Counted from the stretch's first letter, positions 15,885 through 39,501 are shown. The stretch is 43,448 nt of DNA from a virus (IMGVR_UViG_3300029171_000016:1-43448); one strand, 5' to 3'. The notes: generated by a model from the letters alone, not told the origin. A program made the numbers and translations.

Positions 15885-16729
15885 AGAGGATAATCATAAC
15901 TGGAAGTCGTGGAATGATTGCAAGAGAATTAATTGAGCAATTAAATAAAGGAGATGTAACTATTATTTGTGCGGACATAAAAAACGATGTTCCAGTTGAC
16001 TTGAGGAATTTTAATTACTGCCTTCAGTTGTGCGAAGGAGCTGATGAGGTGTATCATTTAATGGGCGTAAAAGGCAATCCAAAAATGACTAGTGAAAGGC
16101 CAGTCGACTTCATGGGACCAATGCTTCAATGCGATACTAATATGATATTGGCGGCTCAAATTCACGGCGTTAAGAAGTTTCTTTACACAAGTTCGATTGC
16201 TGTTGAGAACCCAGATAGCGATAAGTATCCGGCGTGGGCAAAACAAACCGCGGAAACACTAATCGAAGCTATGAGAATTCAGTACCCAAAAGGAACAAAA
16301 TACTGCGTGGTGAGGCCGGCCAATGTCTACGGGAGATATGATAATTTTAGCAATCCAGACGCAATGGTGATAACTTCACTGATTAGAAAAGCATTAGACA
16401 ACGAAGAACTCGAAGTCTGGGGAGATGGACGAGAGGTAAGAAGTTTCATTAATGCGAAAGATGTTGCTGGCGGGATGATTAAGACTATGAAAAAGATGCC
16501 AAACTTCCCGATAAACCTCACAGGACCTCAAGCATCAATTAAAAACGTAGCAGAAATCATTAGAGATTCTATAGGAAAAGAGATTAAAATCAAGTACAAC
16601 CTTTCTAAGGCCTCGGGCAAAAAGAGTCGTGTGATGGCCTCTAACGGATTGTTAGTTGGGTTCAAGCCAAAGATTAGTTTAGAAGATGGAATCAAGGAGG
16701 TAATTGAATGGGTCAAACAAAAATCCTGA
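15881..16729 (+). CDS. NAD(P)-dependent epimerase/reductase (GDP-fucose synthase / GDP-mannose epimerase-like)
   Basis: TGSRGMIA, VRPANVYGRYDNF, VWGDGREVRSFINAKDVA. Confidence 0.82.
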   Translation: MKRIIITGSRGMIARELIEQLNKGDVTIICADIKNDVPVDLRNFNYCLQLCEGADEVYHLMGVKGNPKMTSERPVDFMGPMLQCDTNMILAAQIHGVKKFLYTSSIAVENPDSDKYPAWAKQTAETLIEAMRIQYPKGTKYCVVRPANVYGRYDNFSNPDAMVITSLIRKALDNEELEVWGDGREVRSFINAKDVAGGMIKTMKKMPNFPINLTGPQASIKNVAEIIRDSIGKEIKIKYNLSKASGKKSRVMASNGLLVGFKPKISLEDGIKEVIEWVKQKS

Positions 16730-17400
16730 TAGCGATGCCCGTTCACAACGATTTTGAAGCTTTCAAGTACGCCATAAACGGAATAATTAACAGCACCGCT
16801 TATCCGCACTATACGATATTGATAATTGAATCAGAGTCTACCGACGGGAGTAAGGAATACGCCGATCTCTTACCCAAATTGTTTCCTAGAGTAGATTTCA
16901 TTATTAAACACACTAAGAAGGAAGGTCCACTGAAAGCGTATAATTTTGCGTTTGATTTGGCAAAGGAGATGAAGTGCGATCTGTACTTGACGCAAACGGA
17001 TGTAGTTCACTTTAGACTTTACAAAAGAGATTGGATGTGGGAGCTACATGAGATGTCAAAGAATCCTTCAATAGGGTTGGTTGCGCCGCTTGGAGCTTGG
17101 GGAGTGGCGTATGAACTGGGAAACCCATTTAATTGGATAGGAGGATGGGCTTGCTTTGTTCCTTATAAGACTATTGAGCTGATCGGCGGATATGATGAGG
17201 GATACGAAATAGGAGACTTGGTCGACGTAGATTACTGTTACAATGTAATGCAGAAAGGACTAAAATTAGTTCAAGCAGACTATTGGGTTCAGCACCACTG
17301 GATGACAGCCCACGTTAACGAGCAGCGCGCAGACTTAGAACAAATTAAGCAAAGAAACCGAAAGAGGTTCAAGGAGAAGTGGAAAATTGGTGTGGATTGA
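16708..17400 (+). CDS. Glycosyltransferase, GT2 family
   Basis: IAMPVHN, ESESTDGS, QTDV, IGGYDE, DVDYC. Confidence 0.85.
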   Translation: MGQTKILIAMPVHNDFEAFKYAINGIINSTAYPHYTILIIESESTDGSKEYADLLPKLFPRVDFIIKHTKKEGPLKAYNFAFDLAKEMKCDLYLTQTDVVHFRLYKRDWMWELHEMSKNPSIGLVAPLGAWGVAYELGNPFNWIGGWACFVPYKTIELIGGYDEGYEIGDLVDVDYCYNVMQKGLKLVQADYWVQHHWMTAHVNEQRADLEQIKQRNRKRFKEKWKIGVD

Positions 17401-18674: not shown

Positions 18675-18675
18675 A

Positions 18676-19563
18676 ATGGCACAAAATAAAATAGCGGTGT
18701 TAATTAACTACAAAGATCGCCCGAGCGAGCTTTCACATTTGTTGTTAAGTCTCAGGAATCAAACAATTAAAGATTTTGATGTTTACATCTTGGACGACTT
18801 CTCTGGAACACCAATTCAGACTTATCATTTTATGAACTGCATACTAACAAGAATGAGAATAGAGTCATTTAAAGTTTTTTACAAGCGAACAGATTTTCCG
18901 CACGGAGTTAGCAAAGCGCGGCAAGCTATTGTAGAATGGGCAAACCCAGAAAACTACGAGTATTTTCTCCGAGTGGATGACGACGTTATTTTGGAACCAA
19001 ATTACATCGAAGAGTTATTTGAAGTAATCCAAAAAGGATACCACTTGGCCTCCGGAGTAACGATTGCTATGAACTTTCCATCTTTCAAGAGAGAAAGTAA
19101 ATTCTTGAATGGAGTTGGAAACCGCGTGGTCTTAGATGAAGAAGGAAACTATATTTGGAATGGTGATGACTGCGGAATGGAGTACGTAGACAAAGCAATT
19201 TTACCAATTCATCACTTCAGGAGCTGCGCGCTATATCAAACTGAAATCCACAAGGCCGGCGTTAACTATACACCGAACAGGCTGACTAAGCACGGGTTCC
19301 GAGAAGAACAATTATTTAGTTATAAAATTCAGATGGCTGGATTTAAGATGGGATTCAACACCAAGGCAGTCAATTGGCATCAGATGACTCCAAGCGGAGG
19401 AGAAAGATTCGCAGAAAGCAATGAACTAATTAAAATTAATGAAGCGGTGCTCAAAGAGTTCACGAAGGAAAACAAAGAAAAACTACGAGAGATATTTAAA
19501 TCAGATTGGTTTCCAAGCGAAACTGAAAGACTAAAGGAGACAAATTTAGCAAACAAAATATGA
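18676..19563 (+). CDS. Glycosyltransferase, GT2 family
   Basis: LRNQT, ILDDFS, GVSKAR, RVDDD, FREE. Confidence 0.85.
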   Translation: MAQNKIAVLINYKDRPSELSHLLLSLRNQTIKDFDVYILDDFSGTPIQTYHFMNCILTRMRIESFKVFYKRTDFPHGVSKARQAIVEWANPENYEYFLRVDDDVILEPNYIEELFEVIQKGYHLASGVTIAMNFPSFKRESKFLNGVGNRVVLDEEGNYIWNGDDCGMEYVDKAILPIHHFRSCALYQTEIHKAGVNYTPNRLTKHGFREEQLFSYKIQMAGFKMGFNTKAVNWHQMTPSGGERFAESNELIKINEAVLKEFTKENKEKLREIFKSDWFPSETERLKETNLANKI

Positions 19564-20651
19564 AAGGCATAAACGTAATCGGAACAATTTTAGGCGGCAC
19601 AGGGTATGACAGCCACACAAGGGGACTAGTGAACGCACTAATGAAGTTTACAGAAGTAAAGTTAATTACAAATATTCCTGCGGGAATGGAAATCCACTTA
19701 AATGATCGTGAATTAAACGCTGTCAAGAACACAAAAGAGTATGACACTAACTTGATAATAACAAACCCATCCGGCTGGAGAATGCACTCTACCAATAAGG
19801 TAAATATCGTTTACTTCGTGTGGGAAGGCGATAAGATTCCATTAAGTTTTATCGACGAAATATTAAACCCCGAGATTAAATATGTAATAGTTCCAAGTAA
19901 GCATACTTATGACGCCATTATTAACACCGCGAATACTGTCGAAGCAAAAAATCATAAAGTCATAGAATATTTCAGTAATAAATTAAAGATAATTCCCCAC
20001 GGAGTTAATCTAGAGAAATTTTATCCTATGGAAAAACCAAAAGACAAGTTCAGATTCTTTGCGAACAAAGGGTTCAGGAACTTAGAAGACAGAGGAGGCA
20101 TCCAATATTTAATTAAAGCGTTTAGCGAAGAATTCAAAGCAAATGAAAACATTGAATTAGTTATCAAGATCAATCCTTCTTACGGCATCCCAAACATTCA
20201 TGAGATAATGAGCAAACTTGGAAACAAAGAAGGAGCGCAAATAAGATTTATTACAGACTTCATCAAGTACGAAGACTTAGTCAAAATTTACAACCAGTGT
20301 CACGCATTTGTCAGTCCAACACGTGCAGAGGCCTTTAACATTCCGTGCTTGGAAGCATGTGCCTGCGGGCTCCCAGTGATTACAACCAACTTCGGCGGAC
20401 AAACAGATTTCATAGATAATTCTAACGGATGGGTAATTGGAGGAGAGCTTACTGAAGTAAAACATGAGCTGCAATATGAAGGGATAAAATGGTTAACCCC
20501 GGACATCGGTGCTTTAAAAGTTGCGATGAGACAAGCGTTCGAGGATACTCGGTTAACCGAAGAGAAATCTAGTAAGGCTTTAGAAACAGCTAAATTGCTT
20601 ACTTGGGATAATTCCGCGCAAAACTTAATCTTCGCGATTGAGAACAGATAG
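19560..20651 (+). CDS. Glycosyltransferase, GT4 family
   Basis: GTGY, VPS, IIPHGVN, EAFNIPCLEACACGLPVI. Confidence 0.9.
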   Translation: MKGINVIGTILGGTGYDSHTRGLVNALMKFTEVKLITNIPAGMEIHLNDRELNAVKNTKEYDTNLIITNPSGWRMHSTNKVNIVYFVWEGDKIPLSFIDEILNPEIKYVIVPSKHTYDAIINTANTVEAKNHKVIEYFSNKLKIIPHGVNLEKFYPMEKPKDKFRFFANKGFRNLEDRGGIQYLIKAFSEEFKANENIELVIKINPSYGIPNIHEIMSKLGNKEGAQIRFITDFIKYEDLVKIYNQCHAFVSPTRAEAFNIPCLEACACGLPVITTNFGGQTDFIDNSNGWVIGGELTEVKHELQYEGIKWLTPDIGALKVAMRQAFEDTRLTEEKSSKALETAKLLTWDNSAQNLIFAIENR

Positions 20652-26174: not shown

Positions 26175-28202
26175 ATGCCAATTGCTATTGATCCAGAGAC
26201 AAGGCAAAGAGTTGTATTCAGTAAACACGTTGGTGATGTAGTCTACGATGCTGATAAGAACACAACTGGCCCTGCAGTCTACAACGAGAGCGTTCCGCTA
26301 ATTGGACCATGGCAAGATTACACAGGGCAAAACCCAAGTTACAACACAGTTATCTATAATGAGACCTTTGATACTACGACTTATGACGACACCTCGAATA
26401 CTACGGCTAATGGTTGGGGAACAGGATCACTAGTTTTTTCTGGAAATCAAGTAGCCACATCACTAGTTTTACCATTACCCTCAACTAATATAGAAACAGT
26501 GACTCTCTCGCCAATAGTATCTAATGGGAGTTTCTCTTATTTCATCAACACGAGTGGCACTAATTTTAACACGGGATCTATGACGACAACACTAAGCGGA
26601 GTACCAACACATGTTGTTTGGAATATGAATGGTAATGGGAGCGGAGTTAATGGCGTTTCTGAAAATGTGTTCAATCTGAGCGGGTTTAATATTTCTTTTG
26701 TCACTGGTAAATTAAATCAAGGGGTAGAGTTTAATGGAAGTGGAAATTCATATATGGTACACGGAGGATTCGTTTCTAACTCCTCTGCACAACAAAGCTT
26801 TACTGCGTGGGTATATCCCTATGATTTCGGAACACGCAACGTTTTGTTTTCTTACAGCGGTACAATGTATCTCAATCTAGAAACCACCGGCCAAGTTAGA
26901 TTATTTATGAACTCTGTGGCTGGCCGAGAATTTATAACTCCCGGATCAATTCCATTGAATCAATGGTCTCACATCACCGCAGTTATAGGGAACCGAACCT
27001 TTAATGCCTCGAAACAGCCAACTGATGCAGCTCTATATATCAACGGATCTCTGCAGGCAGTTACTACGGCAGTCACAGGCTCGACTAGCACTACAAGTTC
27101 AAACCTCTACTTAGGAGCACTCCAATCCGGAGTATTGCCTTTCTCAGGAATAATGGACGACGTGAGATTCTATAATTTTAATCTTACCCAACCAGAGATA
27201 GACTTCATTTATAATTCAGGTTCAGGAACTGAGACGTTATTAAGCACGCCATTCTCTCAGCCCGGAATAGTTGGAGAAAAGGCTAGGAGGTTATACGGGA
27301 TGGTAGGAAATGTGCAAATAGGAACTGGAACAGATCCTGACTATTTGTTATTTGATTACACACAAAGCTTTACATTCTCTTGCTGGGTTAAGCCACTAAC
27401 TAATGTATTCTCAGGATCGATGCCCATTATGGGAAGAAACTTTCAGCAGGCAATGCACATAACTCGCAAGGGTGACAATGCCGTTAACTTTCTGTTTGGT
27501 GTGAGAGTAGGAGGGACAGCTCTTTTTGCACCACTAAAATGGGGTTATCTCAATCAATGGCACCACGTTGTTGGAGTATACGATGCAGCCAGTAGGAGAG
27601 TTTACTTGCACTTAGATGGTATCATTGACACAGTTGGAACAGACGTTTCTTCTCTTGACTTTGTACCCTCAGCAGTTTTCAGAATCGGCGATAGTGCAAT
27701 ATTAAACGGAGACATTGTCTCTCCCAATATAATCGTCGATGAAACTAGAATTTATAAGAAGGCTCTTTCCAGTGATGAGGTATCAACTCTTTGGAATAAA
27801 GGGGATGTTGTTGATGGGTTAGTTGCAAAATATTCTTATGAAGAAGAGGAATCAAATGTGATATTCGACACTAGTTCATGGAGCTTAGTTACTCCTGAGT
27901 CACCCCTTAATCTAACTCCCACGCAATCGAACATAGCATGGAAGTCTGTTGAAAGAATGGGAAATCTCGGACAGATTGATGGGATAATTACGAGCGGCAC
28001 TGGATTTGATTCTACTGCAGTATCTTCAACAGATCAGCAAATGTTTGCTTCAGTAGAAAACAGACTTCAAGGTACTGTAGCAGACATAGAAGGACACGCA
28101 AAGGTTCCAAATCTCAATGAGGTAGGTGAAAGAGCTGGAACAACTCGTCGAAGATTAAGAAGAATTTATCGTCAGATTGATTCTAATAATCAATTTTCTT
28201 AG
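26175..28202 (+). CDS. Head-module protein with two LamG/concanavalin-A-like domains
   Basis: SFTAWV..QWSHIT..LYING..FSGIMDDVRFYN and SFTFSCWVKP..QWHHVVGVYD..DETRIYKKAL. Confidence 0.85.
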   Translation: MPIAIDPETRQRVVFSKHVGDVVYDADKNTTGPAVYNESVPLIGPWQDYTGQNPSYNTVIYNETFDTTTYDDTSNTTANGWGTGSLVFSGNQVATSLVLPLPSTNIETVTLSPIVSNGSFSYFINTSGTNFNTGSMTTTLSGVPTHVVWNMNGNGSGVNGVSENVFNLSGFNISFVTGKLNQGVEFNGSGNSYMVHGGFVSNSSAQQSFTAWVYPYDFGTRNVLFSYSGTMYLNLETTGQVRLFMNSVAGREFITPGSIPLNQWSHITAVIGNRTFNASKQPTDAALYINGSLQAVTTAVTGSTSTTSSNLYLGALQSGVLPFSGIMDDVRFYNFNLTQPEIDFIYNSGSGTETLLSTPFSQPGIVGEKARRLYGMVGNVQIGTGTDPDYLLFDYTQSFTFSCWVKPLTNVFSGSMPIMGRNFQQAMHITRKGDNAVNFLFGVRVGGTALFAPLKWGYLNQWHHVVGVYDAASRRVYLHLDGIIDTVGTDVSSLDFVPSAVFRIGDSAILNGDIVSPNIIVDETRIYKKALSSDEVSTLWNKGDVVDGLVAKYSYEEEESNVIFDTSSWSLVTPESPLNLTPTQSNIAWKSVERMGNLGQIDGIITSGTGFDSTAVSSTDQQMFASVENRLQGTVADIEGHAKVPNLNEVGERAGTTRRRLRRIYRQIDSNNQFS

Positions 28203-28264
28203 GTATATACTTATGTACTTAATGTATATAAAGCGAAAACTCGTTAACTTTCTGAGGTAACTGA
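28201..28264 (+). promoter_or_regulatory. Late promoter: GTATATAC 22 bp upstream of TATA (capsid operon)
   Basis: GTATATAC 28203-28210; TAATG-TATATAAA (28225-28232); short leader with GAGGT SD. Confidence 0.75.
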
Positions 28265-29236
28265 ATGCCTAAGCAATCAAAAAAAGAGGAGAGAACGAAA
28301 TTGAATCCACAATTCTTTGAACTACAGTACAATGTACCTATTGCAGAAAGCACTGCGTTTGCTGATAAGTTCATAATCAAGGGTGTTGCAATTAATGAGA
28401 CAACCACAGGTAATAATCACAAGTTTGTCAGGGAGGAATTAAAGGCCTCTGCCGGAACACTAAAAGGTGTACCGCTTCTTGTTGACCACGATAACAGAGT
28501 AGAGTCGATTAAAGGCAGAGTTACAGAATCTGCCTACGATACAACAAATAGCAGAATAGTTTTCGAGGCAAACGTTGTCGATAAATCAATTAGAGAAATG
28601 ATCCGTGATGGTAGAATAAACTCAGTAAGTGTTGGAGCGACAGTAAAAAGTATCGAAGAGGAAGGAGACGTTCTAATCCCAAGAGGAATTACATTCAAAG
28701 AATTAAGTTTAGTTGCCGTGCCTGCAGACTCGGGTGCAACGTTTGGCTTTGCTTTGTCCGAGGCGTATAAATCTAATGTTTCACATTCATCTAAATTCGG
28801 AGAGGATGACGAAGATATTGACGATCTTCCCGTTCAAGACGAAGAGGATGAAATTGAAGAATCAAAAAATGTAAGGAGGTCTAAAATGGAAGAAAAAGAA
28901 ATTGAGAGCTTGAAAGAACAGCTAGCAATTTCTCAAAAGAAAGTAGACGAACTATCGTCCAAAGTTTCTTATTACGAAGAGAAAGAGAGAAAGGATTTAG
29001 AAAATGTTTATCTGCAGATGTGTTCTGAGAAGAAAACAAAAGCAATGGACGTTTCAAAAACTGACACTCGAACTCTTGCGCTTTTGATTGAACAATTGAA
29101 AAACATTGAAACACCAAAAGCAGTAGAAAAGAAACGCGAGGAGAAGTTCGGAGCTACTGAGTCTTTTAATGACAAGTTCAGAATTAAAGTTGAACAAGGC
29201 CCAATGGGTACAGCTTCCTTTACACATGAATGGTAG
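28265..29236 (+). CDS. Prohead protease with C-terminal scaffold-like region
   Basis: PLLVDH, SVSVG, ELSLVAVPAD (HK97-type protease); acidic linker and coiled coil. Confidence 0.9.
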   Translation: MPKQSKKEERTKLNPQFFELQYNVPIAESTAFADKFIIKGVAINETTTGNNHKFVREELKASAGTLKGVPLLVDHDNRVESIKGRVTESAYDTTNSRIVFEANVVDKSIREMIRDGRINSVSVGATVKSIEEEGDVLIPRGITFKELSLVAVPADSGATFGFALSEAYKSNVSHSSKFGEDDEDIDDLPVQDEEDEIEESKNVRRSKMEEKEIESLKEQLAISQKKVDELSSKVSYYEEKERKDLENVYLQMCSEKKTKAMDVSKTDTRTLALLIEQLKNIETPKAVEKKREEKFGATESFNDKFRIKVEQGPMGTASFTHEW

Positions 29237-29709
29237 CACTTAATCCAAACGGACTAGTTATCGTAGGTGATGGTGAAGCGCCAAGAATATTCACAGCAGC
29301 TGTAAGAAGCGATGTTCTCCCGGGAGATTTTGTTTTCGTGTCTGGGGCACTTAACACAGTATCATCTGGAGCAGACTCGTACACATCAAACGATGTTACA
29401 GTAATGCCATGCATTAATCAGCATCAGTTTAACGGAGTTGCATTGGGGTCAGTTACTTCTGGTACTAATCAGTACGTAGGAGTTTTGACAAGAGGTTACG
29501 TTATAAGCAGGGTCATAGGCTCGCTTATCGGTGGAACCTTAGTAGAATTTGTCTCTGGAACCATTCCGGGAGTAAGAAGCCTTACATCTGGAGTAGTCGC
29601 AGATATTGCAGTAGGATCTATTGCTCCTCCGGGTAAAATAATCGGAAGAGCTTGGAGTGACGCAACATCTGGGACGAACAACTATGGTCTCGTCCATGTA
29701 AGTATCTAA
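29230..29709 (+). CDS. Capsid decoration/cement-like protein
   Basis: Between protease and MCP; GVAL, IIGRA beta-tulip-like pattern. Confidence 0.7.
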   Translation: MVALNPNGLVIVGDGEAPRIFTAAVRSDVLPGDFVFVSGALNTVSSGADSYTSNDVTVMPCINQHQFNGVALGSVTSGTNQYVGVLTRGYVISRVIGSLIGGTLVEFVSGTIPGVRSLTSGVVADIAVGSIAPPGKIIGRAWSDATSGTNNYGLVHVSI

Positions 29710-30566
29710 TGGCATTCGAAAAAATCAAAGAATACATTTCTACAGGTGATGGAGTACCGGGCACATTGTTAATACCTAAATTAATAATGCCTGAGTTGAT
29801 CGCAGAGCAAGTAAAAGCTTTAATTCCAAGAGAGGTAGCCGCTAAAGTTTGGGCTCCGGCTCAAATTCAAGGCAGTACATTCACTGTCAATCTGGTAACC
29901 CAGAATACGGGGTTAGTTAGACCTGTTGGTGAAGGAGCAGAAGTTCCATTGAGCAATCTTGACTTCTCAACTGTTACGTTCAATCCGGTTAAATATGGAA
30001 TCGCCGTCAGACTTACAAGAGAAATGATGGAAGACGCCCAGTTTGATCTAATGAGAGAGAACATACAGATGGCAGGAAGGAGATTTGCTGAGAATGAGAA
30101 CAAGCTCATCTTAACAGCACTTGACGGTGGAGCGAATACTGTCGCGGGTGGTACAGCAATAACAATTGCTAACATCACACAGGCAATCTTGAACTTGCAT
30201 AATTCAGACTTTATGCCAACAGATTTACTGATTGGATATGAAGTTTTGAGTGACTTGCAAAATATTGATACCTTCGTTGAATTCCAGAAAGTAGGTAATA
30301 CTGAAATGTTGCAGAGAGGTTTCATTGGAACTATCTACGGCATGAATGTTACAGCTTTCTCTACAAACGCAGCTCCAAGCACGACTTACGCTAAATATGC
30401 GTATGTTCTTGACAGGAGTAAAGCGTACGGAATTGCAATCAAGAGAGACATCAGTATGGAACAGGTTACACTGCCAACCTACGATATGGAGGGAGCAGTT
30501 TTAACGCAAAGACTTGACGTTAAGCTTTTGAGAAGTGCAGCAGTTAGTGTGATCACTACATCATAA
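29709..30566 (+). CDS. Major capsid protein (HK97 fold)
   Basis: GTLLIP, VGEGAEVP, KYGIAVRLTREMMED, GTIYGMNV. Confidence 0.92.
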   Translation: MAFEKIKEYISTGDGVPGTLLIPKLIMPELIAEQVKALIPREVAAKVWAPAQIQGSTFTVNLVTQNTGLVRPVGEGAEVPLSNLDFSTVTFNPVKYGIAVRLTREMMEDAQFDLMRENIQMAGRRFAENENKLILTALDGGANTVAGGTAITIANITQAILNLHNSDFMPTDLLIGYEVLSDLQNIDTFVEFQKVGNTEMLQRGFIGTIYGMNVTAFSTNAAPSTTYAKYAYVLDRSKAYGIAIKRDISMEQVTLPTYDMEGAVLTQRLDVKLLRSAAVSVITTS

Positions 30567-30571
30567 AAACA

Positions 30572-30600
30572 TATTTTATTTTTTATTTTTTAATTTATTA
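30572..30600 (+). terminator. Oligo-T tract after MCP (archaeal-type terminator)
   Basis: TATTTTATTTTTTTATTTTTTAATTTATT with no preceding GC stem. Confidence 0.6.
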
Positions 30601-30631
30601 TAATCAAAAAACAAGGATAAGGAGGTAAAGA

Positions 30632-30850
30632 ATGACAACAGGAAGTACAGTAAAAGGAACAAAAACAGGAATGGTAGACGGGTTAGCCTCGCAAGGGCAG
30701 ACAGTCACGCTTGTAAATGGAAATCCCGATGGAATTATTACGGTAAATGCCGGCAGTCAATTTGCCGCAGACTATACTATTGGAAGTATTTACATGGGGT
30801 TGGCCGTCGGAGGAAGTTCATGGATTTGCTTAGGGAGTGTAGCTGCTTAA
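30632..30850 (+). CDS. Small virion protein
   Basis: AGGAGGT SD; G/S/T-rich. Confidence 0.7.
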   Translation: MTTGSTVKGTKTGMVDGLASQGQTVTLVNGNPDGIITVNAGSQFAADYTIGSIYMGLAVGGSSWICLGSVAA

Positions 30851-30851
30851 A

Positions 30852-31244
30852 ATGGTACGTGATATAAGAGTTAAGGAGTCGATTTTCAGAGTGGGAAGTC
30901 TTACAGCAGATGCTGCAGGACTGTTTGATGTTTACAGCCCAGAGGTAGTTAACGGAACTATCCAGTCAGTAACCATTGGAAGCAACACCTTTACAAACAC
31001 AGGATCACTTATTTTAATGGAATCTGGAACGGTGCCGGCAGTAGGAAATACAATAATTCAGACTAGGGCTGGAAGTATGATGCAAACAGTTTACCCAATA
31101 GTTTACGGAAACGCGAATACTGGTGGAGGAATTGGAAGCCCGCAGGCATTTGTAAGGCCGGTTATTAACGGTCAATTAAGACTAGTTGGTTCTGGTCTCG
31201 GTAATGGTACATCTGGCCTAATATATATGGTTAGATACGTATAG
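30852..31244 (+). CDS. Putative virion protein
   Basis: Beta-rich, head/neck position. Confidence 0.7.
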   Translation: MVRDIRVKESIFRVGSLTADAAGLFDVYSPEVVNGTIQSVTIGSNTFTNTGSLILMESGTVPAVGNTIIQTRAGSMMQTVYPIVYGNANTGGGIGSPQAFVRPVINGQLRLVGSGLGNGTSGLIYMVRYV

Positions 31245-31251
31245 GAGTTAC

Positions 31252-31626
31252 TTGGCAGAAAGTTTAAGCACCATTGGGAGTATTGCAACTTATTTGTACA
31301 ATTCGTTTACAAACATTCCCGGAGGACTATCAGGTACTTTCGTTCAAGTTGTAGACTTGGCTCGACAGCACGTTGCAAATTACACGGGAGATAATATTGG
31401 ATCGAACTCTATCGCTGATAAGTATCAACCGGCAATCGTAGATTTTGCCAAGGCAGACATTTTGGACTTAATCGCAGCAGACCCATCAAACGCAGGGTTA
31501 TCTCTAGCCGAGTTATCTATTACGGCTGCAGATGAAGAACTGAGTGCGGAACAGTATCGTTTACTCGGAGAAATGAAGTTAAAAATGCTAGGACAGAACA
31601 TACAATATCTTAAGTCCTTAAGCTAA
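31252..31626 (+). CDS. Head-tail adaptor-like protein
   Basis: Helical, ARQHVANYTG; synteny. Confidence 0.6.
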   Translation: MAESLSTIGSIATYLYNSFTNIPGGLSGTFVQVVDLARQHVANYTGDNIGSNSIADKYQPAIVDFAKADILDLIAADPSNAGLSLAELSITAADEELSAEQYRLLGEMKLKMLGQNIQYLKSLS

Positions 31627-31627
31627 A

Positions 31628-32056
31628 ATGGGTATCAATGATCAGTTATTTTATGGCCTTCAAACACTAATCGGAAGAGCAGGTAAGCAGATCCGTATTC
31701 GTTACTATAATGAAACAATAGGGAGTGTTTACGATGATGAACTAGTTTTAACGCCTTCAGGAAATGACGTATGGACTTCTGGGATAGTTTTGCCGATAAA
31801 CAACAGCAAAGGTACGTATGAAAATCTGTTAATTGAACAAGGTAAGATGAACCCTTGGGCACAAAGAATGTACGTTCACGGAAGCTTACTATTTGAATCA
31901 GGCGCGTTAAGAGTCAAGGTCGGCGTTGGAAGTCCAAATGAAGAGCAGTTTTCTATTGTGAGTATTGGGGGAATTACTGCCGAGACTAACAACTCAAAGA
32001 TTTACAAAAAGATGTACATTGAGCGGCTTCCGAACGGATCCTTGCTGGGAGAGTAA
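31628..32056 (+). CDS. Head closure/stopper-like protein
   Basis: Beta-rich; synteny. Confidence 0.55.
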   Translation: MGINDQLFYGLQTLIGRAGKQIRIRYYNETIGSVYDDELVLTPSGNDVWTSGIVLPINNSKGTYENLLIEQGKMNPWAQRMYVHGSLLFESGALRVKVGVGSPNEEQFSIVSIGGITAETNNSKIYKKMYIERLPNGSLLGE

Positions 32057-32419
32057 ATGGAAATTAAAGTTTTAAATCAGAAGGAAGTTGAAAAGTTCTT
32101 GGAGAATCTAAAGAAAGCAAAGCTCGAGAAGAGTAAGAAGGCGCTTTTTAATGCGGGGTTCTTCATTCAAAACGAGGTCAAGGCATCTATCGCGGGACAG
32201 AGAAGTGAACCAACAAGCGTCGACACAGGAAGGTTTCTTAACAGCGTTGACGTTAAGCAGGGGAAAACAGACGACGAAGTAATTGTCTTTACAAATATAG
32301 AGTACGCGAAGTATCTGGAATATGGAACGAGCAAGATCCAACCGCGAGCTCATTTCGGCAATACGGCAAAGAGAGTAAACAAGGAAGTAAAGAAGATAGT
32401 GGCTCAAGAAATCAAGTAG
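32057..32419 (+). CDS. HK97 gp10-like tail completion protein
   Basis: VDTGRFLNS, NIEYAKYLEYGTS, PRAHF. Confidence 0.85.
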   Translation: MEIKVLNQKEVEKFLENLKKAKLEKSKKALFNAGFFIQNEVKASIAGQRSEPTSVDTGRFLNSVDVKQGKTDDEVIVFTNIEYAKYLEYGTSKIQPRAHFGNTAKRVNKEVKKIVAQEIK

Positions 32420-32506
32420 TATATACACCTTAATTTAACATATATAAAGAGCAAATGTCTAACCCTACTAACTAACAAGCGAGTTAGTTGGAGTCCAAGC
32501 GAGGAA
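32417..32506 (+). promoter_or_regulatory. Late promoter (GTATATAC 22 bp upstream of TATA) and structured 5' leader of the tail operon
   Basis: GTATATAC 32419-32426; TAACA-TATATAAA (32441-32448); twin AAGCGA-loop hairpins. Confidence 0.75.
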
Positions 32507-32959
32507 ATGGTTGAAAGCGATACATTCATAAGTGATATTTTCTACTTTATAAAGTCAGACCTAGCTTCCAACATAACTGATCCGCTGAGCGGTTCTAGGC
32601 AAAACAATGAGAAATTTGTTATGACCTCTTATCCTCAAAGATTAGTTAATTACCCTGTAATTACGCTTAGAATAACTCAGTTAACCGCGAACAGAGCAGG
32701 AATGCAAACCAGCGCGATTGACACTGAGGTGACAATGGAGATACGCATTTGGGGTAAAAATATTTCGCAGAGAGACAAGCTGTTTCAGCAGGTAGTGAAT
32801 AGACTAAAAAACATTCAGTACCTATCGACAACAGGAAGTCAGGACAATGGACTTCATAACTTTAAGATCTTAAACTCAGTTGAGATAAATGAAGATGGCG
32901 ATGAAACGCCCAAGAGTAAATTAATTAATGTTGGTTATACCTATTATAACCCATCATGA
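32507..32959 (+). CDS. Tail terminator-like protein
   Basis: YPVITL, EIRIW; immediately before the tail tube. Confidence 0.65.
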   Translation: MVESDTFISDIFYFIKSDLASNITDPLSGSRQNNEKFVMTSYPQRLVNYPVITLRITQLTANRAGMQTSAIDTEVTMEIRIWGKNISQRDKLFQQVVNRLKNIQYLSTTGSQDNGLHNFKILNSVEINEDGDETPKSKLINVGYTYYNPS

Positions 32960-32978
32960 TGAAAGGAGGTAAAAAACA

Positions 32979-33983
32979 ATGACAAGATTTATTTCAGATC
33001 AGAACAAGGTTGCTCTCTTAATGGAATCCGGAACGTACTCGAATACTTCTGGAAACGGATATTGGCCCGGTCAGGTAATGAGTCACGATGTTGACGAGAA
33101 CGAAAACTTCTTGGAGACACGTTACTTGGGAACTGCAAATAGAAACTGGAGCGTAATGGAGCAAGGACCTAGAGATTACACTGGAACTCTTAACTACAGA
33201 GTTCAAGATTTTAGACTTTTGGCCTTCGCATTAGGTTCGGTTGGAGTAGTTTCTGGCACCAATACAACTTACTTTATCACGGAGATAAACAACGATGCAA
33301 GACAAAGCCCATGGGTTTCTGGACTGCTGAATGCGCCAGTTAGCTTCACACTTGAAGACTCAAAGGTTGCTTCAGGTACTGGAAAGAATTTCATAAGAAC
33401 TCTAAGAGGTTGTGTTCCGACAACAGTAACACTTACTGCAACTCAAAATGAGCCGGTAACATGCGAATTAGGATACGTTGCACAGCTGTGCGATTACTCC
33501 TCAGGAAATCCAACTTCAATAACTGCAACAACCAACAGACCTTATCTTTGGGCAGATACAACGATCACAATCGGAGGATCCGTTGTCCAAACAGCTAAGG
33601 AAGTTGTTTTAGAAGTCGATCAAGGAACTCAGGGACCACATTACTTGAATGGTTCAAAAGTTATCGCTGCGCCGTTTAAGGAGAATAGAAACTACACGTT
33701 AACAGTCACGTTGGATGCCGAGTCTGAGTCTATAAAGCCATTCTATGATCAGTTCTTCTTAGGAGGAAGTTCATTGAATATCACATTAGACTTTAACGCA
33801 GACAATAAGGCAGGAGTCGTTGGAAGCCAGCACGCTATCTTGATATTTAGCGGATGCAGGTTTTTCGATGTAACAACTCCAAGTCCAAACGAAGGAGTTA
33901 ACGAGCAAACACTTGTAATCAGACCACAGAGCTTTGCAGCAACTATTTACGACCGTATAGGAAGTCCTATCGGTCCGTTTTAG
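32979..33983 (+). CDS. Major tail tube protein
   Basis: AGGAGGT SD; SFTLE, two-domain beta pattern; followed by chaperone and TMP; no sheath gene. Confidence 0.8.
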   Translation: MTRFISDQNKVALLMESGTYSNTSGNGYWPGQVMSHDVDENENFLETRYLGTANRNWSVMEQGPRDYTGTLNYRVQDFRLLAFALGSVGVVSGTNTTYFITEINNDARQSPWVSGLLNAPVSFTLEDSKVASGTGKNFIRTLRGCVPTTVTLTATQNEPVTCELGYVAQLCDYSSGNPTSITATTNRPYLWADTTITIGGSVVQTAKEVVLEVDQGTQGPHYLNGSKVIAAPFKENRNYTLTVTLDAESESIKPFYDQFFLGGSSLNITLDFNADNKAGVVGSQHAILIFSGCRFFDVTTPSPNEGVNEQTLVIRPQSFAATIYDRIGSPIGPF

Positions 33984-33999
33984 TGGCAAGGAGGTGTGA

Positions 34000-34239
34000 A
34001 TGGAAAGCAAAATAATCGTGAGCGGAAAGACTTTTACAGTCAGAGAACTCTTAGCGCGAGAACTTGATGAAGCTCTTGAAACTGAGGACAAAAAAGACTC
34101 TTTGCGAAAACAAGTTAAGTTTTCAACCGGAATCAGCGATGACGAGTATGATAAATTAACTGTGAAGGAGAGGATAGCTATTGTTCGGGAGATCAACAAG
34201 TTAAACGGTGTGGAGGATTTTCAGAGCGGCTCCAATTAA
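34000..34239 (+). CDS. Tail assembly chaperone (gpG-like)
   Basis: Small acidic protein between tube and TMP. Confidence 0.75.
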   Translation: MESKIIVSGKTFTVRELLARELDEALETEDKKDSLRKQVKFSTGISDDEYDKLTVKERIAIVREINKLNGVEDFQSGSN

Positions 34240-34397
34240 AGGAAAAGAACTTAGAGAGGATGTTTATTCTCTGTGAATTCTACCATTGGAGCCCTTCCGA
34301 TTACAAGAGTATGACTGTGCGTGAGCGGGAAGCCGCTGTGAAGTACAGAAACAAAAGAATTAGAGAGATGAATCGGCAAAACAGGAGAAAAAGATAA
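34218..34397 (+). CDS. Tail assembly chaperone -1 frameshift extension (gpGT-like; not in track)
   Basis: -1 frame open from slippery G-GAT-TTT (34215-34221) to TAA 34395-34397; encodes FYHWSPSDYKSMTVRER. Confidence 0.75.
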   Translation, partial: FSERLQLKEKNLERMFILCEFYHWSPSDYKSMTVREREAAVKYRNKRIREMNRQNRRKR

Positions 34398-35662
34398 TGG
34401 CGGACGAAGAAATACAGATATTAATTAGTGCACAAGACGAGATGAGTGCTACCTTAAAAAGGATAGAAGGAAATCTCGATGACTTTGGCAAGGCTACAAA
34501 AAAACAAACTCAACTGACGACCGACGCCTTTAAGTCACAAATAACAACTTTAGTCTCTCTTGGAAATATTGCGTCATCAGTTGATAATATATTTAGCTCG
34601 TACACAAACTTACAACTTAGACTAGAAAACGCTACGGAGAGAGTTACCGGAGCACAGGAAAGATTAAGGGTTGCGCAAGAGAGGTTAACGGATGCACAAA
34701 AAGAAAGCCAGAGAACAGCTTTGTCATTGGAAAAATTATCAGTTCAGGAAGAGAGAAGCAAGAAACGCCTCCAAGAACTTAACAATCACTTAGCTTTCTT
34801 AATTAGAAACAAAGTTAATCCGGCGTCGGAGAAGTATAAAAATACGCTAGCCGAGATCCAAGATGAAGAGTTCAACCTTCGAGATATTCAGTTAACGAGA
34901 ACTGAATTGGTAGAAAAACAGAGCAAGAAAGTAGTCGACGCTCAGAGAGAAGTAGAGTCAGCTACGAGAGGAGTTACAATTGCAGAGAATAATCTCGCGC
35001 GCGCGAATAACCAAGTTATTGGGACTTACATCAACATGGCGACGCAGTCATTAAGTGTTGTCGCCTCGTCAGCAACACTCATCTCAACATTAAGCGGACC
35101 TGCAGGTCTAACAGCCGCATTTGGAGGATTGGGAGGGGCAGTAGGTCTTGGAGGTTTAGCTGCAACGGCTGGAGTCACCGGCGGGTTGGTGGGTTTATTA
35201 TTTGTCATGAGTAAATTAACAACAGAAGATCACCCTGCTTTTATTGACGCACTTGATGAGCAAATTGCTAAACTTAAGGAACTAAAGCAAAACGCTATCG
35301 ATCCAGTCACACAGAAATTTGCTGAGCTAATCGAACAGGAAAAACAGATAGCAAGAATTCACGCAAAATACGGAGTTAAAGGAACAATAAGCACGCCACC
35401 GCCAGCCGCCCCATCATCGAGCTTCCCGATAATTCCGCCGAATATTCCAATAACGACTCCCGGTGTTAATGACGCGGTGATAAAACCAGACGGACAGATT
35501 ATCAGAACGCATCCAGATGATTGGTTATTTGCAACTAAAAATCCTCAATCAATGATGGGTGGAGGGATGACAATTATAATCTCAGGAGATAATTACGGAA
35601 CAGATCCAAACCAGATTGCAGAAGCATTATTTAAGAAACTAAGGAGGAAGATAGCAGTATGA
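34397..35662 (+). CDS. Tail tape measure protein (short, 421 aa)
   Basis: ILISAQDEMSATL N-terminus, long coiled coil, Gly/Ala-rich hydrophobic segment. Confidence 0.82.
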   Translation: MADEEIQILISAQDEMSATLKRIEGNLDDFGKATKKQTQLTTDAFKSQITTLVSLGNIASSVDNIFSSYTNLQLRLENATERVTGAQERLRVAQERLTDAQKESQRTALSLEKLSVQEERSKKRLQELNNHLAFLIRNKVNPASEKYKNTLAEIQDEEFNLRDIQLTRTELVEKQSKKVVDAQREVESATRGVTIAENNLARANNQVIGTYINMATQSLSVVASSATLISTLSGPAGLTAAFGGLGGAVGLGGLAATAGVTGGLVGLLFVMSKLTTEDHPAFIDALDEQIAKLKELKQNAIDPVTQKFAELIEQEKQIARIHAKYGVKGTISTPPPAAPSSSFPIIPPNIPITTPGVNDAVIKPDGQIIRTHPDDWLFATKNPQSMMGGGMTIIISGDNYGTDPNQIAEALFKKLRRKIAV

Positions 35663-37914
35663 CGGTATATTCTCAGTTCTACTATAGCGGGCAGTTAATC
35701 GAGGACGCTTACAGTTATGATGTAAATAAGTCCATCAGTGAGAATAACTCATCAAGCGACTTCTCTGCCTATGTAGAAAACATTGCAGGAAGAAACGCTA
35801 CGACATTTCAAGTAGGGCCAGAAGTCTGTATCTACGCAGATACAAATTGGATTCAACCAAGCGGAGAACCCTTCGGGCAGTTCAGATTTAATGAGGGAAC
35901 GGGCTCTGATTTCTTTGATTCTATACAGAACAATCAAGGTAGTTTGATTGGCGATTTTACTTCTTGGACTCAGGGAAAAATAGGGAGCGCTTTAAACTTT
36001 ATTGGATCCCAAGGATTTGCAGTTCTATCAACTGGATCACCAAACGTGTTCACAAGGGGTTCCGGAGACAGCTTCACTTATACTTTCTGGGTAAAACCTA
36101 CTGGAAGTGCAGGAGCAAACTTTGGAAGAATAATGGAGGACACATACGTTGGATGGTATCCGGGCCAAGTCAGGATTCAATCAGAGGGCGGCTCGATGTT
36201 TAATGTGTCTCTTGCAAGATTTGACGGAACGAACAATCCGACGGCTGTTACAGGGTACATTAGCAGGATAAACGAATGGTCTCACATCGCGTGTGTTTAT
36301 AATAATGATCTAGGCAGCCTCTACATCTACCAGAATGGTTATCTTAGGAACGCCACAAAGGACACTACTGTTAAAGCTGATCAGACGGGTTCTCAAGGGT
36401 TTACTTATTTTGGGAACACTACAGTAGGAACACGCGGGTTCACAGGACAGCTAGATGATTTCAGAATCTACAGAAGACCTTTAACCGATTATGAAATATT
36501 GGCCATATGCAATGCGCTTTCCGGAACTGAGATGATAAATAACGGATCGCAGCTACTCTTTAAAGGAATCGTCGAGAATATCTCATACGAAGGTGTAGAA
36601 CTCGATGAGAAAATAACTCTGACAGGGAGAGACTTTTCTGCGCGATTAGTTGACAGAACTGTTGAACCGGAAGTCTACACAAACATGGAAATAGGGAGTA
36701 TCGTTAGAGATATAATTCGCAAGTACACTAGCAACATTACTACCTCTGGAGTTATGACAGTGCCGGGAAGTCCGCTCGCGAGAATAGTGTTTAATCATAC
36801 TCCTGTTTACGACGCCGTAAATCAGCTAGCACAATTGGCAGATTATAACTTCTACGTTGATGTAAATAAAGACCTATCTTTCGCGCCAGCAGGATCGGTA
36901 AGTTCAGGTTATACGTTTGACTCTGGGAACTCATTGGAAGATGTATTCCAAGTCGACAGAGAAAGCTTGTTCAATCAAGTGTGGGTTTATGGAGATAGGT
37001 ACTTAGATGGATTTCAGGAAACACTTACTGCAGGAAGCCCTCTAGGAGGAAGTATATTTACTCTGCTTTACAATCCGCATAATACTCAAGTTAGAGTAAG
37101 CGGAGCGATTATTCAACCCGGTGGAATTGATGAATTGACTAACACGCCAGTTTCAGGAGCAAAGTATCTAGTTAACTTTTTAGATAAGCAAATCATCTTT
37201 ACCTCAGGAACAGATATTGGAGCTAACATTCCAACTTCAGGGAATCAAGTAATTATAGACTATCAGAGAACCCTTCCCGTCGTAAAAGTTGGAAACAATG
37301 ATCCGAGTATCTCGCAGTTTTCACAACGAAATAAAATTATAGTTGATAAGAACATCAAAGATCCTCTAACCGCGGCAGCCATATTGAAAGAACAGCTAGC
37401 AACTCTTGCAAATCCTAAGATCGAGGGTAACTTAGATGTTTATGGTATTGTTGATGTAGTTCCCGGCCAGACAGCAATCGTTAACTTTCCAAACCAGAAC
37501 ATCAACAGTCAGACCTACGAGATCATTGAGGCAAAGTATGCTTTCAACACCGAAAATAACCTAAGTAATCGTGTTCTTTCATTGAAACTAAATAAAAGAA
37601 TTGGAGACGTTACCGACACATTAAAAGATACTATTCTGGAGTTAAGAAGAATAAACGCACAGGACATAACAACAAGCGATGTAATTACAAGGTTTCAGTT
37701 TGCGACTGGCAGTTACGGCTATCAAACAAGCGGTGTTCTGGTTTACACACGAACCGGATTAGGGAGCAGTTTTATTCTTGGGATCCCAAACACAAATCCC
37801 GGAGGAGTTGGATGGGGAGGAGTTCTTGGAAGCTCAACAGCAAGCGGTGTTAATTATTTGGGAGATTCAAGAAACGCATTAGTCTTAGTCTGGAGCGGAG
37901 GGTATCCGACTTGA
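35659..37914 (+). CDS. Tail-tip/baseplate hub protein with inserted LamG domain
   Basis: LFKGIVE..LTGRD, FYVD hub motifs flank a LamG (SFTYTFWVKP..EWSHIA..GQLDDFRIY). Confidence 0.78.
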   Translation: MTVYSQFYYSGQLIEDAYSYDVNKSISENNSSSDFSAYVENIAGRNATTFQVGPEVCIYADTNWIQPSGEPFGQFRFNEGTGSDFFDSIQNNQGSLIGDFTSWTQGKIGSALNFIGSQGFAVLSTGSPNVFTRGSGDSFTYTFWVKPTGSAGANFGRIMEDTYVGWYPGQVRIQSEGGSMFNVSLARFDGTNNPTAVTGYISRINEWSHIACVYNNDLGSLYIYQNGYLRNATKDTTVKADQTGSQGFTYFGNTTVGTRGFTGQLDDFRIYRRPLTDYEILAICNALSGTEMINNGSQLLFKGIVENISYEGVELDEKITLTGRDFSARLVDRTVEPEVYTNMEIGSIVRDIIRKYTSNITTSGVMTVPGSPLARIVFNHTPVYDAVNQLAQLADYNFYVDVNKDLSFAPAGSVSSGYTFDSGNSLEDVFQVDRESLFNQVWVYGDRYLDGFQETLTAGSPLGGSIFTLLYNPHNTQVRVSGAIIQPGGIDELTNTPVSGAKYLVNFLDKQIIFTSGTDIGANIPTSGNQVIIDYQRTLPVVKVGNNDPSISQFSQRNKIIVDKNIKDPLTAAAILKEQLATLANPKIEGNLDVYGIVDVVPGQTAIVNFPNQNINSQTYEIIEAKYAFNTENNLSNRVLSLKLNKRIGDVTDTLKDTILELRRINAQDITTSDVITRFQFATGSYGYQTSGVLVYTRTGLGSSFILGIPNTNPGGVGWGGVLGSSTASGVNYLGDSRNALVLVWSGGYPT

Positions 37915-37925
37915 CAGGAGGTTAA

Positions 37926-38285
37926 ATGATAAACAATTTTGCTAAACAACAGGCAGCACTTTTAATTGGCGGGAGCAGTGTGCCAACACCAACTTACTTT
38001 GTAATAGGTTCGGGTTCTGGGACGATAATGGCTACCCAAACTACGCTATTTAACGAATATGATCGTCAGTTAATGACATCACGTGATCTTTCAGTCGGCC
38101 AACAAGTCACTTTTACTGGTGATTGGAACTCTGTTGAAATCAGTGGACTGACTCTAACGGAATTTGGTGTAATCGGATCTGCAGCTCCGCTGGTTGGGAG
38201 CATCTGGAGCGTAATCAGTTTACCCGGAATAACGTTCAATGGAACTCAGGAACTAAGAATAGAGGAGGTACATCAGATTTATTAG
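37926..38285 (+). CDS. Tail-tip-associated protein
   Basis: FVIGSG...LFNEYDR...LTEFGV pattern of fibre-collar/baseplate domains. Confidence 0.6.
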   Translation: MINNFAKQQAALLIGGSSVPTPTYFVIGSGSGTIMATQTTLFNEYDRQLMTSRDLSVGQQVTFTGDWNSVEISGLTLTEFGVIGSAAPLVGSIWSVISLPGITFNGTQELRIEEVHQIY

Positions 38286-38335
38286 TATATACTTATGTTA
38301 ATAACGTATAAATAATAAGTTTGAGTTAGATAAAA
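38283..38335 (+). promoter_or_regulatory. Late promoter: GTATATAC 22 bp upstream of TATA (fibre operon)
   Basis: GTATATAC 38285-38292; TAACG-TATAAATA (38307-38314); ATG 29 nt on. Confidence 0.75.
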
Positions 38336-38926
38336 ATGACAGCAGAGGGCTCCTTTCCCAAGGTAGATGGGGATATTTTATATGCAAGTGAGGTAAATAG
38401 ATTTGCAAGGGCTGGTGGTCTCATAGCCGCAGGTTCAACAGCGTCCGCAGGAAGCTCAACCAATTTTCAAACAATAGGAAGCGTGTTTGTTAGCGGTATC
38501 AATTTAGCAGCAGTTTCCGCTAGTACTTGGGCAGGATTTACCATAGATTCAACTCACACAGGGACTGCCTCACAGGCTGGTGCTTCGTTCGCTGGTTCAA
38601 TTAATTACAGATTTAGCGGCACAGCACTACAGAATATTACTCTTAATGGTCCTTACGGTGCCGCAACAGATGTCTCTGCGAAATTATACGGACACACAAA
38701 TGTTTTCGTGAATGCAACAGACACTATGTCTCATGTGATTGGCGGAATGTGGCCTGCAACACCAACAACCTCTTTAGGAAGACAAGCAGCATTCATAACG
38801 AGCGTGGGAAGCCCGTTTGTGATATTTATTGAGTCCGTGCATAACGGAAATACTGCGGGGCAAACCAACGGGACTGGCAGTGTTGGCGTTCACTATATCG
38901 TTCAAAGCCAAAGAGGTGCAGTCTAA
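38336..38926 (+). CDS. Short tail fibre / receptor-binding-like protein
   Basis: FPKVDGDILYASEVN anchor-type N-terminus; S/T/G/A-rich. Confidence 0.6.
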   Translation: MTAEGSFPKVDGDILYASEVNRFARAGGLIAAGSTASAGSSTNFQTIGSVFVSGINLAAVSASTWAGFTIDSTHTGTASQAGASFAGSINYRFSGTALQNITLNGPYGAATDVSAKLYGHTNVFVNATDTMSHVIGGMWPATPTTSLGRQAAFITSVGSPFVIFIESVHNGNTAGQTNGTGSVGVHYIVQSQRGAV

Positions 38927-39186
38927 TGATCGAATTTTTAATTCACTGGATCTTATTTTATGTGAGCATAATGATCGCGATGTGCGTAGATAACATCTTC
39001 TGGATTCCTACTAGCCCTGAGTACCCGAACTTTAAGGAGAACAAGATGCCTATCTTTGTCGAAGGAAAGCTTTATCATTCCAGATTAAGCTATATTTTCA
39101 AGTACAGAATTTTATCAGTTTTAACTCACTGGAGGGACATCGTACCGGCAATAATTTCCAGCACGATATTAACATTGCTATGGTAA
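38926..39186 (+). CDS. Small protein with two hydrophobic segments
   Basis: N- and C-terminal hydrophobic stretches; TAATG coupling. Confidence 0.55.
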   Translation: MIEFLIHWILFYVSIMIAMCVDNIFWIPTSPEYPNFKENKMPIFVEGKLYHSRLSYIFKYRILSVLTHWRDIVPAIISSTILTLLW

Positions 39187-39213
39187 ACCTAAGTTGTCTT
39201 GAAGAGGTGTAAA

Positions 39214-39501
39214 ATGGGAGAGGACATTCGAGGCTACGTAATCAATGAAATTATTAGAAACGTTACAGGCAGCCCAGCATCTTACGTTACTTTTGCACAG
39301 TCGGCGCATAGTGTAATGATTGATAACTTAGGCAGTTCGTTGATCTACTTTAATTTTAACGGTGTCGCACATCCGACTTCTAGCGGCACCGGCATAGTCC
39401 CTGCGCAGAGTTTCCGTGTTTTCGATGTGCAGATCGGTTCAGTGAGTATTCAAAGCAGCGGGCTCACATCATCACAGGTGCAAGTGATAAAACTTAATTA
39501 A
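39214..39501 (+). CDS. Small beta-rich virion protein
   Basis: GAGGTG before ATG 39214. Confidence 0.65.
   Translation: MGEDIRGYVINEIIRNVTGSPASYVTFAQSAHSVMIDNLGSSLIYFNFNGVAHPTSSGTGIVPAQSFRVFDVQIGSVSIQSSGLTSSQVQVIKLN

Follow-up and report, generated by a model that had tools for sequence, protein, structure and literature searches.

To our knowledge, virion glycosylation by virus-encoded enzymes has been established, among tailed viruses, for a few mycobacteriophages only. Virion O-glycosylation of Che8, Corndog, and Myrna was reportedly described by Freeman et al. in 2023. Two reports state that these three phages attach glycans to their capsid and tube proteins (PMC11600133, PMC12363180), and a third places the glycans of mycobacteriophage capsid and tube proteins at the C-terminus (PMC12619734). 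Here, we analyzed IMGVR_UViG_3300029171_000016, the record of an uncultured tailed virus, over its whole length of 43,448 bases (the window), in which a glycosyltransferase cassette precedes the packaging and virion genes. Small outer virion proteins of this virus and its relatives show an excess of serine adjoining glycine that is restricted to certain protein classes, these serines are under strong selection, and a cassette of five transferases travels with the virion genes. Judged from the sequences, the near-invariant serines beside glycine are rather probably acceptor sites for virus-encoded O-glycosylation.

Like the mycobacteriophage system, the window derives from a tailed virus with tandem glycosyltransferases and a methyltransferase, and the tail tube is among the proposed targets. 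Mycobacteriophages, however, use one C-terminal site on capsid and tube, whereas the window virus has many internal candidate sites on about ten small proteins and spares the capsid. It also encodes donor-synthesis genes and probably has an archaeal host, unlike the mycobacteriophage system. The capsid and tube proteins of Che8 and prophiGD43A-1 all end in Gly-Ser, as does the capsid protein of Corndog (five of six proteins in total); the Corndog tube protein ends in Gly-Asp-Ser. In Corndog, gp41 and gp49 are presumed to be capsid and tube because of their size and position. Of 12 further virion proteins of Che8, none has a Gly-Ser ending. Che8, Corndog, and prophiGD43A-1 each possess gp37/gp38-type transferases (the loci of the three phages are L269:5051-8422, L271:8548-13132, and L353:3501-6532); AGM1, with a 52% identical capsid protein, has neither such transferases nor the Gly-Ser ending. 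The terminal serine would be the acceptor in the Che8 and Corndog proteins, and the pattern of endings in these four phages may be taken as a lead rather than as proof. In the family of the window virus, tubes mostly end in PW, PF, PY, or AF, without a terminal serine, and capsids in TS, TT, or TA; unlike in the mycobacteriophages, Gly-Ser is not among the six commonest capsid endings. It is possible, though on the doubtful side, that Gly-Ser is a shared viral O-glycosylation signal, used once and C-terminally on each mycobacteriophage subunit, whereas a widespread family of probably archaeal tailed viruses would carry it internally, dozens of times and on all parts of the particle. A coat with a fixed core and a variable cap would then be readable from the genome, and new domains and unrelated tail modules would have been remodelled to bear the signal.

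A sequence-only reading of the window had counted serines next to glycine by hand, and all of its counts proved exact. Genes are designated here by their start positions (Table 1). Serine adjoins glycine in 9 of 17 cases in the decoration protein 29230, 5 of 7 in 30632, 8 of 11 in 30852, 7 of 11 in the putative stopper 31628, and 1 of 13 in the major capsid protein (MCP). Gly-Ser (GS) and Ser-Gly (SG) sites number 13 in the tube, 32 in the hub, and 6 in 37926, compared with none in the portal and gp10-like proteins and 2 in the tape measure protein (TMP). Composition was corrected for by 2000 global shuffles and by 20-residue local shuffles of each protein. The excess, which on the sequence-only reading should not vanish upon such a correction, outlasted both kinds of shuffle. 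Observed versus expected GS/SG counts were 33 versus 13.4 for the hub (p = 0.0005), 13 versus 4.6 for the tube (p = 0.001), 9 versus 3.2 for 30852 (p = 0.001), 8 versus 2.6 for 37926 (p = 0.0025), 7 versus 2.6 for 31628 (p = 0.006), 23 versus 13.4 for 26175 (p = 0.008), and 9 versus 4.8 for the decoration protein (p = 0.03). These seven outer proteins were individually significant; six were not, namely 30632 (p = 0.07), 31252, 32507, 38336, 39199, and the long fibre 39503 (33 versus 28.7, p = 0.21).

Pooled over the 13 outer proteins, GS was the top-ranked dipeptide (93 versus 44.0, z = 7.4) and SG the second (67 versus 44.0, z = 3.5). This set had been picked after the counts were known, and the real test therefore lies in the relatives. 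The bias had been described as confined to outer proteins. The remaining 45 window proteins are indeed at background (GS 24 and SG 30, each versus 28.8), but the description is loose, since the exposed MCP and the long fibre are outer proteins without enrichment. Since only the coding frame was enriched (GS 72 and SG 55 versus 29.5 in 12 outer genes, the fibre left out), while the remaining five frames match expectation, and since 20 different codon pairs are used for GS and 17 for SG, a DNA-level motif is ruled out. Low complexity and local composition are ruled out by the local shuffles. We also rejected archaeal N-glycosylation of these proteins: N-x-S/T sequons are near expectation in the window (tube 6 versus 4.3, hub 12 versus 9.9, decoration 0 versus 1.6) and at expectation in tube homologues.

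The excess in small outer proteins of head, neck, and tail recurs across the virus family, which we sampled at 92 loci. Every homologue of the tube (72/72), stopper (55/55), hub (40/40), 37926 (38/38), decoration protein (33/33), 30632 (29/29), and 30852 (14/14) lies above GS/SG expectation, as do 39 of 45 homologues of 31252 and 65 of 70 of 32507. For the other classes, the corresponding numbers are 10/24 (portal), 14/32 (protease), 18/40 (MCP), 3/62 (gp10-like), 8/47 (chaperone), and 20/69 (TMP). The 119 tube homologues listed, of 239 found, each have GS/SG at 1.4-3.1x expected. The gp10-like family is depleted (GS 0.24x, SG 0.39x); the same family (window 32057-32419) is enriched in the dipeptides GT (2.6x) and TG (3.3x).

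The candidate serines of the tube are residues 17, 24, 87, 92, 114, 132, 175, 201, 226, 264, 283, 291, and 329. Among 111 tubes, S17, G18, G86, S87, S283, S291, and G292 make up 7 of the 15 invariant columns. Retention of serine adjoining glycine is 0.53-0.78 in nine outer families and 0.40 in a tenth, compared with 0.10-0.47 for other serines; the portal, protease, gp10-like, and chaperone families show no such gap. Near-invariant serine columns adjoin glycine in 25 of 34 cases in outer families and 6 of 18 in inner families, and threonine columns do so in 3 of 13. When Thr, Ala, Asn, or Asp adjoins glycine, it is not retained as serine is. At every conserved serine site, codons of both the TCN and the AGY box are found, and threonine is rare. 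The signal is conservation of particular serines, in keeping with random gain and strong retention. In the predicted model of the decoration protein, seven of nine sites are in coil. Judging from the tube topology, the conserved sites presumably lie at loops and outer hairpins rather than on lumen-lining strands, S291 being mid-strand.

The flanks show weak consensus preferences and nothing more ([T/I/A/V]-G-S-[V/I/L/P] and [T/V/I/A]-S-G-T), so that a longer acceptor consensus was rejected. Thr, Ile, Ala, and Val prevail, and acidic residues are depleted: over the three positions before either pair, Asp and Glu together amount to 0.03-0.08, against a background of 0.11. In animal proteoglycans, xylosylation takes place at Ser-Gly with acidic flanks. 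Serine stands next to glycine in both cases, with the order in the window being mainly Gly-Ser; given the depleted acidic flanks and the lack of a xylosyltransferase family among the Pfam and NCBIfam matches, the proposed analogy with this system finds no support. The bacterial autotransporter heptosyltransferases TibC/AAH are reported to modify multiple Ser, not Thr, of beta-rich surface proteins in the cytoplasm, and one of two mapped serines quoted there precedes Gly-Gly (PMC4358343). The conserved window positions, which are candidate sites read from sequence, are serine with rare threonine. The same source describes beta-helix repeats and a dodecameric iron-finger enzyme, whereas the candidate targets of the window are unrelated, non-repetitive folds. 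A TibC/AAH-type enzyme was absent from the 51 and 34 PDB matches of two GT4 profiles and from the NCBIfam matches.

The cassette comprises two GT4 and two GT2 transferases and one GT2-methyltransferase fusion in a cluster. In 14 related records, each of the five is present in 12-13, whereas donor and tailoring genes occur in 2 to 8 (dehydratase 3, epimerase 8). GT2 Pfam matches of the fusion gene 9860 were obtained for 8 of 10 orthologues at E<=0.01, and GT4 genes were present in 16 of 16 long relatives tested. Relatives of 19560 occur on 173 viral stretches; 30 further records reached through this gene include 21 with a tube relative, close in 19. The thiamine pyrophosphate (TPP)-dependent E1 pair presumably serves branched-sugar synthesis. 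Within it (window 12067-14001), a NUMOD3/nuclease-like open reading frame (ORF) splits E1 alpha and beta, and an intervening ORF is also found in G004. Two small unannotated genes (window 6828-7342) neighbour the GT4 gene that opens the cassette, one in 9 and the other in 11 of 14 relatives.

Sites and transferases were compared between groups, with the outer class defined blindly by composition, in 31 cassette-bearing records and 9 controls, four of them partial. GS was 1.17-2.35x (median 1.83) in the cassette-bearing records and 0.36-1.12x (median 1.06) in the controls. G435 and G440 were left out because their expected counts were below 2 (GS 0 versus 0.3 expected in G435, 2.08x in G440). 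Three further comparisons are less dependent on kinship among the records. The records G436, G437, and G439 share the head genes and four cassette transferases with the window (the GT2 gene 16708 was not detected), and their tubes are 21-23% identical or undetectable. GS is nevertheless at 1.71, 2.35, and 2.20x in these divergent-tail viruses, with the sites at other positions. The inserted LamG domain of the hub (residues 60-294) has 10 GS versus 2.6 expected and differs from 19 homologous LamG domains of six other proteins (62 versus 45, 1.4x; Poisson p = 0.004). Short non-homologous accessory proteins (n = 56) reach GS 1.75x. Host amino-acid style was rejected as the source, as Nanoarchaeota cell proteins of the same composition gave GS 1.12x in the largest sample (G009 cell contigs); three smaller samples (1.36, 0.58, and 1.41x) are uninformative at 6-9 expected counts.

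We propose that the virus's own glycosyltransferases start O-linked glycans at serines beside glycine, giving a coat on decoration protein, neck, tube, and tail tip. The neighbouring glycine would give the enzyme room and backbone access. The signal would lie chiefly in Gly-Ser and more weakly in Ser-Gly(-Thr), which is also common in ordinary turns. Serine would be primed in the cytoplasm by one core transferase and the glycan lengthened by the remaining core enzymes into an inner chain of fixed structure. A cap differing between strains might then be contributed by the variable genes (dehydratase, epimerase, TPP, radical-SAM, and methyltransferase). Sites would arise at random beside glycines dictated by the fold and then be kept. 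As to the priming enzyme, PDB profile searches with the transferases gave generic glycosyltransferase matches; only chlorovirus B736L gave a match that extended into the N-terminal domain of 7323. G438 and G440 (L229-L233) contain the two GT4 genes alone, remote homologues directly before the packaging genes, together with a milder, GS-skewed excess, a pattern that may indicate priming by a GT4.

Several results weigh against acceptor sites for the viral transferases. SG overlaps between the groups, with 1.01-2.54x (median 1.68) in cassette-bearing records and 0.90-1.72x (median 1.36) in controls: the discriminating pair is Gly-Ser, and Ser-Gly is partly a generic turn bias. The cassette-bearing records form one clade with near-duplicates (G006/G007), so that the group test overstates independence. 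Control sets defined by annotation are higher (pooled GS 1.33x, SG 1.29x; several HCTV-2 proteins 2-3x; Haloferax tailed virus 1 (HFTV1) GS 1.20x) and overlap the weakest family members; the separation is therefore one of degree. Cultured phages with distant 19560 homologues have no GS excess (Mae-JY09 1.22x, DanielleIgnace 1.19x). The window transferases have no detectable relation to Corndog gp35-38 (best score 4.9 bits with three cassette profiles and two single queries). The exposed capsid protein and the long fibres, which in relatives were examined as 8 clusters (GS 1.02x), lack the excess. Invariant serines away from glycine show equal codon-box mixing. Lineage-specific serines follow glycine at 0.099 and precede it at 0.095, compared with 0.092 and 0.087 for other lineage-specific residues; an ongoing gain of sites was not seen. 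In the predicted tube structure, 9 of 13 sites are in coil, barely above other serines (7 of 14), and four are assigned to strands, S291 mid-strand. One Ser-Gly of the decoration protein is also found in HFTV1. Finally, no close relative without the cassette was found among 16 records. The controls are therefore distant, and the enzyme link is correlational and confounded with descent. Relatives lacking transferases had been expected to lose the bias; distant ones with the same tube fold mostly lack the serines and show little GS excess, and no close one was available for the comparison. The proposal that GS and SG are selected acceptor sites is supported in part.

HFTV1 has the closest solved decoration protein. 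In the accessible part of its description, this protein forms trimers on the outer capsid surface, and no virion glycan is reported there (PMC12494034). Unlike the window virus, HFTV1 has no annotated glycosyltransferase and no PF00535 match. The Douge paper was discarded as a glycosylation precedent because its subject is glycan binding.

A rival explanation is structural inheritance: ancestral glycine turns or bulges in which serine caps the backbone, kept by the family while the cassette acts elsewhere. We consider this unlikely, although it has substance: the excess comes from retained sites and not from faster gain, the glycines are conserved with the fold, one site is common to HFTV1, S291 is mid-strand, and beta-rich virion proteins of cassette-less viruses already have SG at 0.9-1.7x, some at 2-3x. 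The fold, however, works without serine at most positions in distant tubes. In five cultured viruses with no match to the cassette profiles, the tube glycines are kept and the serines mostly are not, position 87 being A, N, K, I, and K (Pfam GT4 was absent from three and GT2 from four of the cultured tube-family viruses tested). Inheritance would moreover have to cover an excess in ten different protein families and explain why Thr, Ala, Asn, and Asp beside glycine are not retained like serine, why non-homologous tails, accessory proteins, and the inserted LamG domain are also enriched, and why GS is near 1 in the blind controls.

Alternatively, the serines might be modified by a host enzyme or by the viral radical-SAM enzyme or methyltransferase, with the cassette glycosylating DNA or the host surface. 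Phage transferases are reported to act on DNA and host serotype (PMC12619734); the score of 19560 for the 'GT4-conflict' Pfam family just reaches the cut-off, and for neither the GT4 enzymes nor the GT2 enzyme 18676 does an enzyme known to act on proteins stand out as the best relative. We nevertheless regard this as improbable: the radical-SAM gene is in 8 of 14 records and the transferases in 12-13, tubes have N-x-S/T at expectation, and transferase identities correlate with tube identities (Spearman 0.73-0.88; portal 0.80). For DNA glycosylation, no base-hydroxylating or hydroxymethylase partner was found among the window Pfam matches, a genome search for Tet/JBP being one without a positive control.

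As a third alternative, Gly-Ser patches might stay unmodified and be selected because they make the surface flat, rich in hydroxyls, and poor in charge, for the binding of glycans or minerals or under an environmental regime. The enriched proteins do contain little Lys+Glu (mostly 4-11%) and much Ser, Thr, and Gly, and the flanks are hydrophobic or Thr. This reading nevertheless deserves very little credence, since composition was corrected for, threonine is no substitute, single invariant positions across many folds suit an enzyme target better than a bulk property, and the long fibres, as the expected binders, have no excess.

Literature searches, mostly without subscription papers, yielded no paper on a Gly-Ser/Ser-Gly virion sequon or on this virus family, and no recognition rule for virion glycosylation. 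New here are the distinction between Gly-Ser and Ser-Gly, the tests on divergent tails and an inserted domain, and the Gly-Ser termini in a known system. With named candidate residues, a fixed candidate enzyme set, and a matching Gly-Ser ending in mycobacteriophages, the virus family makes O-glycosylation at serines beside glycine directly testable. If it takes place, some of the many transferase cassettes known from uncultured viruses would serve to coat virions, and the cassette enzymes could be used as compact tools to O-glycosylate chosen sites. In the cultured phage P19250A, gp23 (L266:21390-26600) has 225 Ser-Gly pairs versus 66 expected and lies two genes upstream of the sole cultured-phage match to transferase 18676; P19250A is a possible tractable model for Ser-Gly modification.

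Table 1. Cassette and virion genes of the window.
Feature	Position	Strand	Remarks
GT4 (GT-B) glycosyltransferase, first cassette gene, core	7323..8621	+	PF00534 9.7e-17, PHROG 2170; 12/14 related records
B12-binding radical SAM enzyme, variable tailoring gene	8593..9873	+	8/14 records
GT2-like domain fused to methyltransferase, core	9860..11128	+	Methyltransferase Pfam in window protein; 13/14 records
TPP-dependent E1 alpha + beta pair	12067..14001	+	3/14 records
Cupin-like ORF (by inspection), NDP-sugar (nucleoside diphosphate sugar) 4,6-dehydratase, epimerase/reductase	13998..16729	+	Variable donor-synthesis genes
GT2 glycosyltransferase, core in close family	16708..17400	+	PF00535 3.6e-9; 13/14 records
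GT2 glycosyltransferase, core	18676..19563	+	PF00535 6.8e-14; 13/14 records; also G436, G437, G439
GT4 glycosyltransferase, last cassette gene, core, upstream of packaging genes	19560..20651	+	PF00534 3.1e-17; 13/14 records
Two-LamG protein between portal and protease	26175..28202	+	Lineage-specific; 23 GS/SG versus 13.4 expected
Capsid decoration/cement protein	29230..29709	+	9 sites; across the family, Ser is conserved at alignment positions 30, 38, 46, 77/79
HK97 major capsid protein (MCP)	29709..30566	+	1 site, not enriched
Conserved post-capsid protein, 72 aa	30632..30850	+	5 GS; 29/29 homologues above expectation
Beta-rich viral protein, 130 aa	30852..31244	+	8 Ser sites; 14/14 homologues above expectation
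Putative head-tail adaptor	31252..31626	+	Label by position; 3 sites, each near-invariant
Putative stopper	31628..32056	+	Label by position; 7 sites; family GS 3.3x
HK97 gp10-like protein	32057..32419	+	0 sites; family-wide depletion
Putative tail terminator	32507..32959	+	Label by position; 3 sites, 1 near-invariant
Two-domain tail tube protein	32979..33983	+	PF18906; 13 sites
Tape measure protein (TMP)	34397..35662	+	Not enriched
Baseplate hub with inserted LamG domain	35659..37914	+	32 Ser sites
Tail-tip protein	37926..38285	+	PHROG 5417; 6 Ser sites
Tail-tip/fibre-base protein	38336..38926	+	9 sites, alone not significant; 11/12 homologues above expectation
Beta protein, 100 aa	39199..39501	+	5 sites, alone not significant
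Long fibre-like protein, 1105 aa	39503..42820	+	Not significantly enriched

Nearly all long ORFs of the window lie on the plus strand, in the order small early genes, glycosyl cassette (7323-20651), terminase, portal-MuF, protease, HK97 capsid, neck, tube, tape measure, hub, and fibre. The labels of adaptor, stopper, and terminator reflect gene order only, because these proteins gave no Pfam, PHROG, or NCBIfam match; the stopper also had none in PDB sequences. The tube model (predicted local distance difference test score, pLDDT, 88) matches the folds of the P74-26 and T5 tubes. The model of 29230 (pLDDT 76) matches the HFTV1 capsid stabilisation protein and the base of phi29 gp8.5, and its profile matches 8qsy (E 0.0098). 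A single-sequence tube search of viral contigs gave no match, and the capsid and decoration proteins had none among cultured phages.

The host is probably archaeal. One family member sits in a Nanoarchaeota bin on a contig that reads as viral over its whole length, and a 72% identical capsid is named from a Promethearchaeota bin (n = 1). Among 401 genomes of Nanoarchaeota, one contained a close match. A promoter scan of the window remained at chance level; an AT-rich stretch before the portal gene (23732-23756) resembles, by eye, an archaeal BRE-TATA element. The left 26 kb of G007 (L102:1699-12972, L103:301-9134) encode several small membrane proteins as well as an integrase and a LamG protein, and are perhaps a second element or host flank. 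The N-termini of these small membrane proteins look, by eye, like archaeal pilin-type signal peptides.

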